35,340 bases of DNA from an uncultured Ignavibacteriaceae bacterium. GTDB lineage: Bacteria; Bacteroidota; Ignavibacteria; Ignavibacteriales; Ignavibacteriaceae. The position numbers were made by a program, and so were the translations under genes. Where the stretch lies: contig CAYPMQ010000001.1 of NCBI GenBank assembly GCA_964411625.1, forward strand, positions 1 through 35,340. The letters run 5' to 3'. Below, in pieces: positions 14,460 to 28,731 of the stretch (position 1 is its first letter; every line of letters starts with the position of its first letter). The notes beneath the pieces are model-generated. The model was not told the DNA's origin, made no database searches, and worked only from the letters and a program-made list of their open reading frames with translations.

Positions 14460-14987
14460 TTATTTAACTGCGGATTTCAGTTCTTCCATTGTAAAAAGCG
14501 GATTCAGTTTAAGCCCCTCTGTGCCAAGTTTTTCATGAGCACTTTCTTCTCTGAGAATCACACAAATCACGTCTGATGTCACTGCTCCCCCTCTGCGGAG
14601 ATCTTCGGTGCTGAGAATTATCTGACCGCCCGTGGTAACAACATCCTCAACTATGCATACCTTTTTCCCTGAAAAATCATTTCCTTCGGCAACCTTTCTT
14701 GTTCCGTATTCTTTTGCTTTTTTACGGACGAGAACGGAAGGGATTCCGGTTTTCAGTGAGAGTACCGTTGCCAGCGGAATACCACCCATTTCCAACCCCG
14801 CAAGAATTTCGGTTCCCTCAGGTATAAGATCTTTCATGTGATCCCCTATGGCATCAAGAAGCTTTGGATCGGTTTCAAAACGGTATTTATCAAAGTATTC
14901 ATTAGAAATCTTACCTGAACGGAGTAAAAATTCTCCCGTCAGATGAGCTGATTTAAAGATTTGTACGGCAAGTTCATTTCTGTCCAT
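14460..14987 (-). CDS. pyrE: Orotate phosphoribosyltransferase
   Basis: 175 aa. PRPP-binding motif KVCIVEDVVTTGG, with family-typical FLLRSGKISNEYFDKY near the N-terminus. Confidence 0.9.
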   Translation of the reverse strand: MDRNELAVQIFKSAHLTGEFLLRSGKISNEYFDKYRFETDPKLLDAIGDHMKDLIPEGTEILAGLEMGGIPLATVLSLKTGIPSVLVRKKAKEYGTRKVAEGNDFSGKKVCIVEDVVTTGGQIILSTEDLRRGGAVTSDVICVILREESAHEKLGTEGLKLNPLFTMEELKSAVK

Positions 14988-15281
14988 TTAATAGGGCTTT
15001 CCATTTAATAAAATACACAGGGGAAATTTAATAAAAATTTATCCTCCTTCTCCATTTTTATAATCTTTTTAAAATATATCCTTTCATATGTAATTTTTTT
15101 TATTTATTTTTAATTTCAAACTATTACTTTTTGTTAAAGTTTTTAATCATTAATGATCAACAGGGTTTAAGCGGCTCCTCACCGTCATTCAACGCTGAAC
15201 TCCTATCTGAACTGCAAATATAACCGGGCAGAGATATTTTACCCGGAACGATTGAATTAATAAAAATTGCAAAGGTGATTA

Positions 15282-16304
15282 ATGAAGTCATATTTATTTC
15301 CGAGTGTTCTTGAAAAACACGGCGAGGAATTAAAAAATGTTTTTGATGAATTAATCAAGGGCATGAAAATTTATCATGATGATGAAGCCTATCTTGTTGG
15401 GGATATAGCACTTGTTGAGGGTACTTCTCCTCACAGAGTTGTCAATAGTTCTCCGCTCGAGAGTGATTACAGAATACTTTCAAAGGCTGCTGTCTTACTT
15501 GCATCCTCTCAGATTAATAAACCGCTGAATATAACAGTCGGTTTTCCTTACAGTACCTACAATGCCAACCGCGGACTTGCTGTGGATTTTTTCAAAGGAA
15601 GACACGATATCTATTATGATTTATTTGCCTTTGAAAAAAACTTTACAAAAAAAGTTGAAGTTGAAATTGAATCAGTTGATGTGATTCCGGAAATCCTGGG
15701 ATGCAGTTTTGCCGTCAGGAATCACTTTAACAGTCCGGATAACTGTTTCGTAGTTAATCTCGGTTACGGTACATTTGAAGCATGTCTTACTAATAATTAT
15801 GGTCTCGTTGACAGAACGGTTATTTCAACCAATGGAATTAAATATGCCGTTGAAGACTGCATGAAGGAGCTGAACAAGAAATACTATCTCGGCCTGCGCA
15901 CTTCACATAAATTTGATACTTATTTCCAGCGCGGCTCAATAATGGTCAACAGAAGGCACCTTGATTTTTCCGAAATCAAGATGGATTCACTTAAGAAATA
16001 TTACAATGAAGTGATTTCACCCGCAATAAGAAATACATGGACTGATGATGATTTTGACCGTACACGCAAGCTGTATCTGGCCGGCGGAGGATCAAACTTC
16101 CAGGAAATAGTAAAATTTTTCCAGGAAGAATTCAACGGAATTCTCGATGTTGAAGTTATTCCTGAACCTCACCTTTCTGTCTCAAAAGGGTACTATCTGA
16201 GATCACTGAAATTAACTAATGATAAAGAAACTGCCGTTGGCATTGACATAGGAAATGCACAAACAGTTGTCACCTATGGTTTACCGCATTACATGCAAAT
16301 GTAA
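15282..16304 (+). CDS. ParM/StbA-like actin-fold ATPase (bacterial actin-like protein) with the phosphate-1 motif at the C-terminus
   Basis: 340 aa. It aligns by eye along ParM-R1. FPSVL corresponds to ISPNSF, AYLVGDIA to the subdomain IB hairpin, ITVGFPYSTY to VCTLPLTEY, and VDVIPEILG to VKVMPESIP. The phosphate-2 motif is FVVNLGYGTFE (aa 156-166), the adenosine motif is LYLAGGGSNF (aa 264-273) and connect-2 is VSKGYY. The phosphate-1-like AVGIDIGNAQTVVTYG occurs at aa 318-333. A TGA at 15276-15278 blocks any N-terminal extension, and an AAGGTGA RBS precedes the start. Confidence 0.7.
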   Translation: MKSYLFPSVLEKHGEELKNVFDELIKGMKIYHDDEAYLVGDIALVEGTSPHRVVNSSPLESDYRILSKAAVLLASSQINKPLNITVGFPYSTYNANRGLAVDFFKGRHDIYYDLFAFEKNFTKKVEVEIESVDVIPEILGCSFAVRNHFNSPDNCFVVNLGYGTFEACLTNNYGLVDRTVISTNGIKYAVEDCMKELNKKYYLGLRTSHKFDTYFQRGSIMVNRRHLDFSEIKMDSLKKYYNEVISPAIRNTWTDDDFDRTRKLYLAGGGSNFQEIVKFFQEEFNGILDVEVIPEPHLSVSKGYYLRSLKLTNDKETAVGIDIGNAQTVVTYGLPHYMQM

Positions 16305-16363
16305 TTTAAATTACGGGGAATGTAAAAAGCTCCCGGTATTAATTTGTCTGAGGATCAAAAAAG

Positions 16364-16954
16364 ATGATGTTTGTTAAGGATAAAGAGAAAGTCAGGAAAC
16401 CAGGACAAAGCGAGTCTGAAATAACCTACATTAACGATGAAGTTCAGATTATCGGTTGTTTTGCAGTACCTCACAATCTCGTCCTTTTAGGTAATATAAA
16501 AGGGGATGTTGTTGTTAAAGGTGATCTTATTATTGGCAAATCTGCTGCAATAATCGGAAATGTTTACTGCAAATCCGCCACCATAGACGGAATCTTAAAC
16601 GGTAATATCACTTGTGAGAAAAAGCTGACTGTAAATGAAGGCGGTCAGATTCTTGGTGATATCACTGCTGAAGATTTCCTGAGTTACGGCAAAGTTAACA
16701 TTGCCGGCAAGATAAATATCAGCAACAACGGTACATACATATCAGAAAACTATGAAAATCTGGTTTCAAAAATGCTTAATGATGCTAAATCAGGTAAAAG
16801 TGAAAACAGGAAATCCGGCGCTGATGAAAAGAATTTCGCTTACGAATCACATAACCTAAATAATGGCAGTTCAGTATTTTATGCTTCGGAAATTCCTGCA
16901 TCCTCTGCCGACGGGAATTCAGCTGATGCCCGGAAATCCAATCCCTGGGCCTGA
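16364..16954 (+). CDS. Bactofilin (polymer-forming cytoskeletal protein, DUF583/CcmA family)
   Basis: 196 aa. The core shows the repetitive beta-helix pattern of bactofilins (LGNIKGDVVVKGDLIIGKSAAIIGNVYCKSATIDGILNGNITCEKKLTVNEGGQILGDITA). It is flanked by low-complexity, probably disordered N- and C-terminal tails. It starts 59 nt downstream of the actin-like gene on the same strand. Confidence 0.85.
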   Translation: MMFVKDKEKVRKPGQSESEITYINDEVQIIGCFAVPHNLVLLGNIKGDVVVKGDLIIGKSAAIIGNVYCKSATIDGILNGNITCEKKLTVNEGGQILGDITAEDFLSYGKVNIAGKINISNNGTYISENYENLVSKMLNDAKSGKSENRKSGADEKNFAYESHNLNNGSSVFYASEIPASSADGNSADARKSNPWA

Positions 16955-16992
16955 TCAGGAATTAGTCTCCCTAAAGAGAAAACTTATAAATT

Positions 16993-17247
16993 TTATGGAA
17001 CAGGATCATATCCGCTGCCTCCCCAAGGGTGGCAGCGTGATATGCGCTTAATTCCAAGCCAGCCCCCCTTAAGGATTCCATACTTTTTCATTGCTTCAAT
17101 AGAATAATGTGAACATGTAGGAGTATAACGGCATGAGGGTGGAAACAACGGTGAAATAAATATTTGATACATTCTGATCAACATGATCAGAGGAACAGCA
17201 AGCAGCTTCATCAGTCTGATAAAAAACTTCATATTACCCGCCGGCAC
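16993..17247 (-). CDS. yidD: Membrane protein insertion efficiency factor YidD
   Basis: Signature [49 protein letters not shown]. Confidence 0.9.
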
Positions 17248-17268: not shown

Positions 17269-17757
17269 TTAATCATTTCCGTCTTCTTCGTGATCTGCCT
17301 GCTCAAGGAGAAAATCTGTTATCGCCATTATATCAAAGCCTTTATTATCAGGATCATTTATCACCTCAAAATAAACTTCATAATGCCGGTAAACCTCGGT
17401 TTTTTCTCGTACAAGTATATCCGGAAGGCTTGTCATCATTTCATCCCTCTCAGATGGCAGCTTACTATTGACTGCGTCAATAATCAGCAGTTTCTGGTTA
17501 TAAGTAAGTACTGCAGATCCGGTCAACATGTGAAGAAAATAATCACGAAGTTCATTATCATGTGTCATTATTACAGAAAAAACAATGCTGCTGTAAGAAT
17601 CTTCATCGCAGAGAAGGTCTTCAATTGATACTGAATCCCGGATAGAAATCTGCCCATAAGTCTTTTCATTCGCATCACCTTTCTCTTTCCAGTCGCGATG
17701 ATGGAGCCAGGGAATGAAATCAGGTTCAGGAATTTTCGTTTTATATCGTTCCATCAC
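17269..17757 (-). CDS. Hypothetical acidic cytoplasmic protein, no recognisable domain
   Basis: 162-aa ORF packed between the CDF gene (12-nt gap) and yidD (21-nt gap). Its composition is protein-like with an acidic tail (EQADHEEDGND). The overlapping plus-strand ORF 17164..17628 looks like junk by comparison. Confidence 0.5.
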   Translation of the reverse strand: MMERYKTKIPEPDFIPWLHHRDWKEKGDANEKTYGQISIRDSVSIEDLLCDEDSYSSIVFSVIMTHDNELRDYFLHMLTGSAVLTYNQKLLIIDAVNSKLPSERDEMMTSLPDILVREKTEVYRHYEVYFEVINDPDNKGFDIMAITDFLLEQADHEEDGND

Positions 17758-17769
17758 AATCTGTCGCTT

Positions 17770-18745
17770 TTAATATTTAACCATTTTTAGCGGAAGAGGT
17801 TCCCTTAGTTCCTTTTTCTCACAAATAACGGGTTCAAATGGCTCAATATGCACCAGAACATCACTTATAGAGGGCTTCCCCTCTCTTATTTTATCTTTGA
17901 TGGCATGAGCTATATCATGTCCGGCACGCACTGATATTCCACCGTCAACAATTGCATGCAAATCAACAAAATATTCAAAACCCATTTTGCGTACAAAGCA
18001 TTTTTCTATATCTATAACAGCTTTAACTTTTTTTTGCGAGCTGTCTTACCTCTTCATGAACGGAATCAGGCGGAGCGGTATCAAGTACTTCTCTGAAGGC
18101 GGGCATAAAAAGAGATACAGCATTGTAAAGTATTATTGCCGAAGCAAACAGGGCAGCATAATCATCTGCTTCTTCATACCCCTCACCGCCGATAAGGGCA
18201 ATCGAAATACCGATAAAAGCTGCAGCAGATGTGATTGCATCGCTTCTGTGATGCCATGCATCGTTTGTTACCGCCGTGCTTTCAAGATATTTCCCCACAA
18301 CTATTATTTTTCTGAAAAGTAATTCTTTTACTGCCACAACCACCACAAGAACAAAAAGTGTGAAGGGAGCGGGAGCATAATGAGGCGTAAGAATCTCCCT
18401 TATACTCTGGATCACGATCAGAATACCTGCTCCCGCGAGCATAAGACCTACAAACATCCCCGCAAGCGGTCCGGCTTTTCCGTGCCCGTAAGGATGGGTC
18501 TTATCTCTTGGCTTTGAGGCAAACTTAATCCCCGCCGGTACAATTACTGATGTAAAGATATCCGGGAGTGACTCTATTGCATCAGCAATTAGGGCATAAG
18601 AATTTCCGGGTACGCCGACTGCACCTTTTATCAGTACAAGAAAAAAAGATACAATTATTCCTGCGAGTGTGGTTTTTAAGCCTTCAACGGATTTTTTCTT
18701 TAATAGAGGAAAATCAACAACGGATGCAGAAGTGTTGAATGACAT
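17770..18745 (-). pseudogene. Cation diffusion facilitator (CDF) family metal efflux transporter, split by a +1 frameshift in an A8 homopolymer
   Basis: ORF 18023..18745 encodes the transmembrane domain (HPYGHGK, DAWHHRSD). ORF 17770..17985 encodes the cytoplasmic dimerisation domain (FVDLHAIVDGGISVRAGHDIAHAIKDKI...VLVHIEP). Removing one A from the run at 18028-18035 joins them as ...EEVRQLAKKVKAVIDIEKCFVRKMGFEYFVDLH.... Confidence 0.8.
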
Positions 18746-27189: not shown

Positions 27190-28731
27190 ATGAAAAGACT
27201 TCCGCTCGGAATCCAGACTTTTTCTGAAATTATCAACGGCAATATGCTTTATGTTGATAAAACCCGGTTTATCCCCGCTATGACGGAAAGATATAAATAT
27301 GTCTTTTTATCAAGACCAAGAAGGTTTGGGAAATCACTGTTTGTATCCACACTGGCGGAATTCTTCAATGGAAATAAATCCCTGTTTAAGGGCCTGGATG
27401 TTGAAAACATCAATTCATGGGAATCTTCACCTGTAATAAGAATAGATTTTTCTACCATTCCGAACAAAACTCCGGAGATCTTTAATCAACAACTAATGAT
27501 TACTCTCCGGGAAATCGGCGCTGTTGAAAATATTGATGTAAACACGGAATTTCCTCAGCGGGGAATTGATCTTCTGGTAAAAGGTTTTTATGATAAATAT
27601 CAAAAGAGTATTGTCATTCTTGTAGATGAATATGACAAACCGATAGTTGATCATCTCGATTTAATAGATAATGCTGAGGGAAATAAAACTATTCTGAGAG
27701 ATTTTTTCACCTCGATTAAAGGACTGGATCAGTATATCAGATTTATGTTTATTACCGGGGTGAGCAAGTTTTCCAAGGTATCACTTTTTTCCGGTATGAA
27801 TCAGATAGTGGATATTTCACTCCATCGTGACTTTTCTCAAATTATGGGTTATACGGTTGATGAAATTGAAACTTGTTTTGGTGATTATATTGAATCTGTT
27901 ACCGGAGAAAAGAATCTCACAAAGCAGGAACTCGTTAACTCGTTAGCTAATTGGTATAATGGTTATTCCTGGGATGGCTCTTCTAAGGTATTTAATCCAT
28001 TCTCGGTGCTCAATTACTTTGACAAAAAAACATTTGGTAATTATTGGTTTACTACCGGAACGCCTTCACATCTTATAAAATTGCTCAGGCAAAGTAATTT
28101 TGATCTGAACACTATCGAAAATGCTGAGGCTGTTGAATCTTCTTTTAATTCAGATGATCTTTCAAGAATTTCACTTACCAGCATTCTTTTCCAGACCGGA
28201 TATCTTACGATAAAACGTCTGCAGGAATATTTCGGAGTCAATACATATGTACTCGATTACCCAAATTATGAGGTTAAAGATGCAGTTTACCGGCTGATCA
28301 CTTCAGAACTTCTGGCTGAAAACCCTGAATCACTTAATATTCAGAGCCTGAAGATGAGGGATGCACTTAAGAATGGCGACACAGAATCATTCCTACGTCT
28401 GTTAAAAGCGCTTTTCGCCCAGATCCCTTCTAATCTTTTTATGGCAGAAGAGAAGTATTATCACTCCCTTTTTATTATGATAATGTTTTTGACAGGAATC
28501 AGAAGTGATGCAGAAGTTAATACAAACCTCGGCCGGATAGATGGGATTATGGAAACAAAGGATAAAATTTACATAGTGGAATTCAAGTATGACAAAACCC
28601 CGGGTATTGCTCTTGAACAGATTCATGCTAAAAAGTACTACGAGAAATATTCAGGGAAAGGAAAGCAGATAATTTTGGTGGGTGTCAATTTCAGCCGTGA
28701 AAATATCACAATGGTTACAGAATCAGTGTAA
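27190..28731 (+). CDS. AAA-ATPase-like domain protein with a C-terminal PD-(D/E)XK nuclease-like domain
   Basis: 513 aa. The N-terminus MKRLPLGIQTFSEII...YVDKTRFI, the P-loop-like LSRPRRFGKSL and the Walker-B-like ILVDEYDKP are typical of the AAA-ATPase_like family. The C-terminal GRIDGIMETKDKIYIVEFKYDK fits a D...ExK nuclease core. Confidence 0.8.
   Translation: MKRLPLGIQTFSEIINGNMLYVDKTRFIPAMTERYKYVFLSRPRRFGKSLFVSTLAEFFNGNKSLFKGLDVENINSWESSPVIRIDFSTIPNKTPEIFNQQLMITLREIGAVENIDVNTEFPQRGIDLLVKGFYDKYQKSIVILVDEYDKPIVDHLDLIDNAEGNKTILRDFFTSIKGLDQYIRFMFITGVSKFSKVSLFSGMNQIVDISLHRDFSQIMGYTVDEIETCFGDYIESVTGEKNLTKQELVNSLANWYNGYSWDGSSKVFNPFSVLNYFDKKTFGNYWFTTGTPSHLIKLLRQSNFDLNTIENAEAVESSFNSDDLSRISLTSILFQTGYLTIKRLQEYFGVNTYVLDYPNYEVKDAVYRLITSELLAENPESLNIQSLKMRDALKNGDTESFLRLLKALFAQIPSNLFMAEEKYYHSLFIMIMFLTGIRSDAEVNTNLGRIDGIMETKDKIYIVEFKYDKTPGIALEQIHAKKYYEKYSGKGKQIILVGVNFSRENITMVTESV

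Follow-up and report, generated by a model that had tools for sequence, protein, structure and literature searches.

What does an actin-like ATPase of the ParM type do on a bacterial chromosome when the gene that follows it encodes a bactofilin? The question is raised by a 35,340-nt stretch of DNA from an uncultured Ignavibacteriaceae bacterium (GenBank assembly GCA_964411625.1, contig CAYPMQ010000001.1, positions 1 to 35,340, forward strand; hereafter the window), in which an open reading frame (ORF) for an actin-like protein, ORF A, is followed by one for a bactofilin, ORF B. A preliminary description of the window, made from the sequence, had placed the two ORFs on the plus strand, 59 nt apart, at 15282-16954, and these coordinates are exact; its assignment of the products to the ParM-like actins and the bactofilins is borne out by Pfam matches, AlphaFold2 (AF2) models and Foldseek searches. 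The most unusual features of the pair had escaped it: the chain of the actin-like protein is, as judged from its sequence, circularly permuted, and the bactofilin ends in a conserved tryptophan. The two genes form a conserved chromosomal module of the Fibrobacterota-Chlorobiota-Bacteroidota (FCB) group, in which the bactofilin may stand in for the DNA-binding adaptor and centromere of plasmid segregation cassettes.

A Conserved Two-Gene Chromosomal Module

Relatives of ORF A were collected from one genome per species by a scan that combined sequence patterns with tblastn. Such a relative is encoded in 281 species genomes, and the best 80 loci were analyzed. These belong to Ignavibacteria and Melioribacteraceae, Rhodothermales, Balneolales, Cytophagales (Cyclobacterium, Roseivirga, Lunatimonas), Sphingobacteriales (Parapedobacter, Sphingobacterium, Mucilaginibacter) and Bacteroidales; the closest (L001) lies in an Ignavibacteriaceae metagenome-assembled genome (MAG) and shows 92% protein identity. 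With an iterated hidden Markov model, a bactofilin ORF is found immediately 3′ of the actin-like gene and on the same strand in 75 of the 80 loci, a count that takes in one locus (L026) in which the ORF start is over-extended. In orthologous loci the two genes are typically ~4 nt apart, with overlap in some cases. Flanking genes are of the housekeeping type and differ between lineages. Because clustering of all neighboring ORFs revealed no further gene common across lineages, the conserved unit consists of these two genes.

The distance matrices of the two proteins are closely correlated (r = 0.95, a value reached in 0/2000 Mantel permutations), and the bactofilin is the faster evolving of the two (mean distance 0.69 vs. 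0.44 for the actin-like protein). The relatives are located on contigs of several Mb, and when ORF A was compared by tblastn with 72,556 plasmid records and 50,697 phage records, there were zero matches at E ≤ 1e-5. The pair is a conserved chromosomal two-gene module of the FCB group, co-inherited across several of its lineages. Public names of the homologues are generic, either "ParM/StbA family protein" or "hypothetical".

In 10 loci, from Sphingobacteriales and some other lineages (L048, L051, L054, L058, L063, L065, L066, L069, L070, L077), a second, short bactofilin of 122-140 aa is encoded immediately 5′ of the actin-like gene, at a distance of ~400-800 nt; it has neither a tail nor a terminal tryptophan. 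This flanking pair of bactofilins suggests a three-gene version of the module with a possible co-polymerizing paralogue. Many carriers of the module (L014-L029, L032, L035, L036, L040, L052) belong to Cyclobacterium, Lunatimonas, Lunatibacter and Pleomorphovibrio, genera whose names derive from ring-shaped, crescent or pleomorphic cells. Straight-rod genera carry the module too, so that no correlation with cell shape is established.

A Circularly Permuted Actin Fold

ORF A matches the Pfam family ALP_N well above the gathering cut-off (40.9 vs. 26.3 bits) and, with the second half of the protein, MreB-like_C (29.1 vs. 27.8 bits). Its best PHROG match is phrog_691, annotated "partition protein" (E 8e-25). 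Curated models of individual actin families are matched far below their cut-offs: the NCBIfam ParM equivalog PRK13917 gives 30.4 bits against 417, the MreB models are missed (PRK13927, 12.4 vs. 293 bits; PF06723, 13.6 vs. 27 bits; NCBIfam range 12-13 vs. 293-515), and the curated cut-off for MamK likewise lies far above the score of ORF A. The earlier label "ParM-like" holds for the type of fold, ParM/Alp, and not for membership of the NCBIfam ParM family. Hsp70 domains rank below the actin-type matches, and Pfam revealed neither a kinase domain nor a chaperone substrate domain in ORF A. The family is compact, with ~15 full-length clusters (at 50% identity) below E = 1e-94, followed by a gap to E = 1e-19.

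The AF2 model of the protein (mean predicted local distance difference test, pLDDT, 89.7; predicted template modeling score, pTM, 0.89) has the two lobes of an actin fold. Foldseek matches the model with a probability of 1.00 and template modeling (TM) scores of 0.65-0.72 to Ta0583, pCBH ParM and CorM. The best structural match is Ta0583 (PDB 2fsj, TM 0.70/0.74), followed by pCBH ParM (TM 0.68-0.72), CorM (PDB 9rmi, TM 0.65) and pSK41 ParM (TM 0.60); further matches are Alp12, BeeR, MamK, MreB and Bt ParM, and PDB 4a62 is listed as well.

The phosphate-1 signature normally opens actin-fold ATPases. In ORF A the phosphate-1 hairpin sequence, VGIDIGNAQTVV, is C-terminal (residues 318-332 of 340) and not N-terminal. 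An alignment of 24 members of the actin-like family (A1) contains an invariant C-terminal block, VGIDIGNAxTVV, that includes G320, D322, G324 and N325, and the N-terminus begins with FPSV. Profile comparisons agree with a relocated hairpin: the native sequence matches ALP_N at profile positions 17-148 and phrog_691 only from profile position 26 onward, and when residues 315-337 are shifted to the front, the ALP_N score rises from 40.9 to 52.1 bits and the coverage extends to positions 1-148. With the A1 profile, residues 320-336 align with MreB 14-30, KDLGIDLGTANTLVYVK. Canonical relatives (P0187, P0193, P0197), obtained from a search of 1.84 billion representative proteins, contain GxDxGxGxxK, then ~10 residues, then FPSxVG, and family members that have been re-permuted align with them end to end. 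The phosphate-1 motif is C-terminal in 80/80 relatives and N-terminal of FPS in 0/80. The AF2 model contains strands at residues 318-323 and 327-332 (average pLDDT 94 and 90 for blocks 311-320 and 321-330), and to judge from the sequence and this confidence, the C-terminal hairpin would fill the canonical phosphate-1 position. On this evidence the sequence is that of a circularly permuted actin fold of the ParM/Alp lineage. Some members carry long low-complexity extensions past the C-terminal hairpin (P0125, L005, L007, L008): P0125 (535 aa) has ~190 extra residues rich in E and K, and the Rhodothermales proteins have ~50, rich in Q, P and E.

The nucleotide-binding residues are largely retained. 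D322, G324, E137, G161, G163, T164, G268 and G269 are invariant, and the motifs to which they belong are listed in Table 1. Two sites set the permuted clade apart from its canonical relatives: connect 1 reads PExxG vs. PQPxG, and phosphate 2 reads (N/S)xG(Y/F)GTxE vs. DxG(F/Y)xTxD, the leading Asp being replaced by Asn or Ser and the trailing Asp by Glu.

The Partner Bactofilin and its Terminal Tryptophan

ORF B matches the bactofilin family PF04519 with 64 bits (cut-off 27.9), residues 21-117 covering profile positions 1-97 of 98. AF2 predicts a beta-helix for residues 20-120 (pLDDT 82-94, from a shallow alignment of 3 sequences); residues 1-17 and 146-190 are disordered (pLDDT <50), and a helix at 128-142 is of low confidence. 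By its domain match and predicted fold, the second gene encodes a bona fide bactofilin. No DNA-binding domain was detected in it with Pfam. The membrane-targeting consensus published for bactofilins reads MFSKKKK, and in Bacteroidota its fourth residue is acidic (PMC12448750). The N-terminal peptide of ORF B, MMFVKDKEKVRK, resembles this consensus, including the acidic position 4, and similar N-termini of an MxxF-K-rich kind are found in many of the partner bactofilins inspected; the likeness is one of sequence.

The beta-helix is followed by a tail that cannot be aligned even between relatives that are 61-66% identical overall, and its length varies from 0 to 129 residues across the loci. The very end of the protein behaves differently. 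Of 74 complete bactofilins encoded downstream of the actin-like gene, 72 have a tryptophan among their final three residues and 68 have it at the very end, against a tryptophan frequency of 0.2% in the rest of these proteins. Among 17 diverse partners (mean identity 25%), invariance is confined to four core glycines and the terminal tryptophan. None of the 10 tail-less paralogues upstream of the actin-like gene has it. A residue that stays constant at the end of a disordered, rapidly changing tail is what usually marks a short docking motif.

The alignment of partner bactofilins has no stretch conserved enough for DNA patterns, and a single-sequence search found 3 proteins. A profile search returned 120 bactofilins, of which 55, with a median of 222 aa, end in tryptophan and the other 65, with a median of 135 aa, end differently. 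An actin-like gene lies immediately upstream in 3/3 contexts of tryptophan-ended bactofilins and in 0/4 contexts of those without the residue; of these four, two are flanked by fabH and the ATP synthase operon, one comes after secA and one is located elsewhere. A short bactofilin (129-133 aa) that differs from the partners and has no tryptophan recurs in this context, between fabH and the ATP synthase operon, at L089 (3001-3390) and L090 (3001-3402), where it adjoins an ATPase_gene1 ORF; the two contigs come from a Salinivirgaceae MAG and from a metagenome, respectively or in the other order.

The Adaptor Position in Distant Permuted Relatives

Beyond the compact family lie weaker permuted relatives (E 1e-19 to 1e-10: P0176, P0179, P0188, P0189, P0192, P0206, P0229, P0252, P0256). 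In the contigs of four of these (P0176, P0179, P0188, P0206; L081-L086), an ORF of 87-116 aa follows the permuted gene in every case. The small proteins of L081, L083 and L084, together with an extra ORF of L084, look alike by eye, with a basic N-terminus, a strand-like segment and helices; the small ORF of L082 departs from this pattern. None of the ORFs in this position has a Pfam match even at E = 10, and their identification as ParR was for this reason rejected. One small ORF beside these relatives ends in ...ALDLWGGATT. The distant permuted genes are otherwise surrounded by ORFans, or by genes that encode DNA polymerase B, HNH nuclease and exonuclease, a neighborhood that hints at mobile elements. 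Neither the phage nor the plasmid records contain a match to these distant loci.

The small ORF that the distant relatives have at this place strengthens the original remark that the bactofilin sits where a ParR gene would be expected. It seems, then, that a bactofilin in the FCB branch corresponds to a small protein in the ParR position of its permuted relatives.

A Proposed Mechanism and its Competitors

The interpretation judged probable, if only just, is that a membrane scaffold of bactofilin bearing tryptophan-tipped tails anchors, nucleates or stabilizes filaments of the actin-like protein, and that this scaffold takes the place of ParR and parC. Bactofilins are reported to assemble on the membrane's inner face with no need of a nucleotide (PMC12448750), and this one would polymerize likewise. 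The resulting polymer would display an array of flexible tails, each tipped with the tryptophan peptide, and these peptides would dock on the actin-like protein. Docking could then anchor, nucleate or stabilize ATP-dependent filaments. In ParMRC systems, C-terminal peptides of parC-bound ParR engage ParM in this way, so that the bactofilin would be a protein-only substitute for adaptor plus centromere. The output may be local shape control, polar organization or the positioning of an item bound to the scaffold, among which the sequence does not decide. In its widest form, the proposal would be that a composite cytoskeleton, so far overlooked, is widespread in the sampled lineages of Ignavibacteria, Rhodothermales and Bacteroidota, in which dynamic filaments of the permuted actin are nucleated or anchored by the tryptophan peptide of the membrane bactofilin and the latter replaces ParR and the centromere; in this form it is a tentative possibility, held somewhat short of probable.

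Several points weigh against the scaffold mechanism. Both the contact between the two proteins and filament formation by the permuted protein are postulates of the model. The matrix correlation speaks for co-inheritance and not for contact, since vertical inheritance alone correlates such matrices. Five of the 80 loci (two Balneolales, Odoribacter, Azobacteroides and one Bacteroidales) have the actin-like gene with no adjacent bactofilin, and the reciprocal sample of bactofilin contexts is small (7 proteins). The loss of the phosphate-2 Asp to Asn or Ser means that ATP hydrolysis may be altered. As the small ORFs of the distant relatives belong to no Pfam family, "ParR-like" describes their position and size. 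Finally, the terminal tryptophan could have another purpose, at the membrane interface, in the binding of a different client or as a signal for degradation.

The last of these doubts leads to a variant in which the pathway is the same and the tryptophan tail recruits a third partner, which might be an enzyme of the membrane or cell wall or else the membrane as such, with the actin contact made through the bactofilin core or not at all. Tryptophan is a typical membrane-interface residue, and the five loci without an adjacent bactofilin also fit this variant. So does the case of C. crescentus, where the bactofilin core, rather than the tail, is the binding site of the client PbpC (PMC12448750). 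However, among the bactofilins sampled, the tryptophan tail occurs only on those that follow an actin-like gene, and no third conserved gene lies beside the pair, so that recruitment of a third partner is unlikely.

The postulated filaments are the point at issue in a second alternative. The actin-fold protein might be non-filamentous, an ATPase of the ASKHA superfamily (actin/Hsp70/sugar-kinase) whose task is to regulate, remodel or cap the polymer formed by the bactofilin. The permuted chain with its replaced phosphate-2 Asp, and the scores far under the curated cut-offs for ParM, MreB and MamK, are compatible with this, as is the fact that polymerization of the actin-like protein is a prediction. 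Nevertheless, its nearest matches in sequence and structure are all filament formers (phrog_691, Ta0583, the ParMs of pCBH, pSK41 and Bt, CorM, Alp12, BeeR, MamK), Hsp70 domains rank lower, and no domain of a kinase or chaperone substrate type was found; a purely regulatory ATPase is thus an even more doubtful candidate than a third partner.

The Locus and its Chromosomal Setting

The setting of the pair (Table 1) bears on whether it could be a segregation cassette after all. The minus-strand flanks, pyrE and yidD, and the very AT-rich leader were correctly recognized in the preliminary description, and the leader presumably holds the promoters of both pyrE and the actin-like gene. The 12-bp perfect palindrome to which attention had been drawn, ATCATTAATGAT at 15146-15157, does exist. 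It was considered as an operator or centromere and rejected: such a palindrome is present in 18% of shuffled leaders, the window contains 14 of this length against 10.4 in shuffles, and it is missing from the orthologous locus L001 (92% identical), for which reasons it is judged a product of chance. A second 12-bp palindrome, TAATTTAAATTA at 16302-16313, spans the stop codon of the actin-like gene and the start of the spacer; palindromes of this length are about as frequent in the window as expected by chance.

No iterated repeats were found, no repeat family having more than three short copies, and neither iterons nor terminators nor sigma-70 promoters exceed expectation in a scan that does not model FCB promoters; within the same limit, no sigma-70-type promoter was matched 5′ of the actin-like start codon. 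The ORF list contains no small ParR-like ORF at the locus, where there is also no room for one. The window, leader included, has zero Rfam matches, and it has no tRNA genes. The remainder of the 35 kb is chromosomal and typical of the FCB group (PorV, a type IX secretion system (T9SS) sorting domain, a TonB receptor, DPP-IV, a phosphoenolpyruvate (PEP)-utilizing enzyme, a polyprenyl synthetase), with no integrase, plasmid or phage genes. PADLOC has no family matching either protein, and a reading of the locus as a defense system or prophage was rejected for want of PADLOC, phage or plasmid matches. The absence of a ParR-like ORF, of centromere repeats and of a plasmid or phage context, as first described, is in this way corroborated.

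It is consequently very improbable that the pair is a cryptic ParMRC-type segregation cassette, whether chromosomal or belonging to an integrated element, with an unrecognized adaptor and centromere. The "partition protein" annotation of the top PHROG, the name "ParM/StbA family protein" of homologues and the small downstream ORF of distant permuted relatives would suit such a cassette. Set against these are a locus with no small ORF, no iterated repeat and a palindrome due to chance, the lack of integrase, plasmid and phage genes in the 35 kb and of matches among plasmid and phage records, housekeeping flanks that vary between lineages, and a bactofilin with no detected DNA-binding domain. 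That the genes are functionally unrelated and adjacent by accident hardly deserves credence, as 75 of the 80 loci keep order, strand and tight spacing while the other neighbors change.

Some further features of the window stand apart from these questions. The GC content is 34.9-38.3% over the module (15001-17000) and ~40-44% in the flanking kilobases. Next to yidD on the minus strand lies a 162-aa ORF (17269-17757) with no Pfam or NCBIfam match. A cation-efflux (CDF) transporter appears to be divided between two minus-strand ORFs 37 nt apart (18023..18745, Cation_efflux; 17770..17985, ZT_dimer). This split (17770-18745) could be due to a frameshift or to faulty assembly, or the gene could be a pseudogene. 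The plus-strand gene at 27190-28731 encodes AAA-ATPase_like and PDDEXK_9 nuclease domains and has no NCBIfam match; it lies in the lowest-GC stretch of the window (33.6%), its neighbors are on the other strand, and it may be a small island.

Table 1. Features of the actin-like/bactofilin locus, with coordinates in the window.
Feature	Coordinates	Strand	Remarks
pyrE	14460..14987	-	TIGR00336, 122 bits vs. cut-off 106.8
Divergent AT-rich leader, pyrE (-) to actin-like gene (+)	14988..15281	.	294 bp; GC 27.9%
Actin-like gene (ORF A)	15282..16304	+	340 aa; circularly permuted, ParM/Alp type
N-terminus of actin-like protein, MKSYLFPSVLEK	15282..15317	+	Starts at the strand that comes after the phosphate-1 hairpin of canonical relatives
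Connect-1 motif, P136-E137-I-L-G140	15687..15701	+	E137 and G140 invariant in A1
Phosphate-2 motif, N159-L-G-Y-G-T-F-E166	15756..15779	+	G161, G163, T164 and E166 invariant
Adenosine-binding motif, L-A-G268-G269-G-S	16077..16094	+	G268 and G269 invariant; aligned with MreB ...LTGGGA...
Relocated phosphate-1 beta-hairpin, A318-VGIDIGNAQTVVT-Y332	16233..16277	+	C-terminal; variable linker to core
Spacer between ORF A and ORF B	16305..16363	+	59 nt; no terminator-like site
Partner bactofilin gene (ORF B)	16364..16954	+	196 aa
N-terminal peptide of bactofilin, MMFVKDKEKVRK	16364..16399	+	Like bactofilin membrane-targeting sequence; invariant in close relatives
Disordered hypervariable tail, ~residues 143-190	16790..16933	+	Rich in E, S, K, P, D; pLDDT ~30
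C-terminal motif, K-S-N-P-W195-A	16934..16951	+	W near-invariant
YidD gene (yidD)	16993..17247	-	PF01809, E 2.5e-32

Significance and Relation to Known Systems

Bacterial actin homologues and bactofilins have hitherto been studied as separate systems. The surmise that a module of both was undescribed stands: in a literature search that covered subscription journals thinly, no paper linking a bactofilin with an actin-like partner gene was found, nor any description of a circularly permuted bacterial actin. If the proposal is true, no earlier case is known to us either of a natural circular permutant among actin-family filament proteins or of an actin-like and a bactofilin cytoskeleton that are directly coupled. 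A module in which the two are genetically locked over a broad lineage would then represent a new way of building and positioning intracellular filaments, in which a plasmid-type segregation motor has become a host cytoskeletal device through the exchange of a DNA adaptor for a membrane scaffold. The permutation is also relevant to protein evolution and structural biology, as the phosphate hairpin of the ATP site is now tethered at the C-terminus, and one may ask whether subunits can exchange it. The module is present in cultured genera with available strains (Cyclobacterium, Roseivirga, Sphingobacterium, Mucilaginibacter, Parapedobacter, Echinicola, Maribellus) and is therefore directly testable.

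The ParMRC systems (ParM/ParR/parC of R1; AlfA/AlfB, Alp7A/Alp7R, AlpC/AlpA) share with the module an actin-fold ATPase of the same broad lineage, followed by a gene on the same strand in the adaptor slot, and the array of flexible C-terminal peptides proposed to engage the filament protein. The locus nevertheless lacks all three defining features of ParMRC, namely a gene for a ParR-type DNA-binding adaptor, the iterated repeats of parC, and carriage by a plasmid or phage. Instead, the second gene encodes a self-polymerizing bactofilin, and the actin fold of the first is, by its sequence, permuted.

Closer in setting are ParM-like proteins encoded on chromosomes. In Anabaena, the CorMR system includes a chromosomal ParM-like protein for which its authors propose a repurposing from DNA segregation to a cytoskeletal role (bioRxiv 10.1101/2025.06.27.661541); unlike the FCB protein, it has a ParR-type partner, CorR, and a normal chain order. 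The cParMs of Desulfitobacterium and Clostridium are likewise chromosome-encoded and ParM-like, but they are paired with cParR and have the normal chain order; no mention of bactofilin or permutation was found in the paper that describes them (PMC12270681).

With respect to fold, Ta0583 of Thermoplasma acidophilum (PDB 2fsj) is the best structural match, and MreB-like_C, a domain named for archaeal actin homologues, matches ORF A. Ta0583 is, however, archaeal, only 19% identical and of normal chain order, and a bactofilin partner is not mentioned in the sources consulted. MreB shares the actin fold and a phosphate-1 motif, GIDLGTANT, close to that of ORF A, from which it differs by the permuted chain of the latter and by a score of 12-13 bits against cut-offs of 293-515.

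The bactofilin side of the proposal has its nearest parallel in the BacNOP-PadC-ParA system of M. xanthus. There, a conserved motif in the long, unstructured C-terminal tail of a bactofilin recruits a client that is tied to a nucleotide-dependent positioning ATPase, the tail of BacP recruiting PadC (PMC12448750). The two systems differ in the players: in M. xanthus the client is PadC and then the Walker-type ParA, and the motif is KKKVVVKK, whereas in the FCB module the motif is a terminal tryptophan and the candidate client is the actin-fold protein encoded next door.

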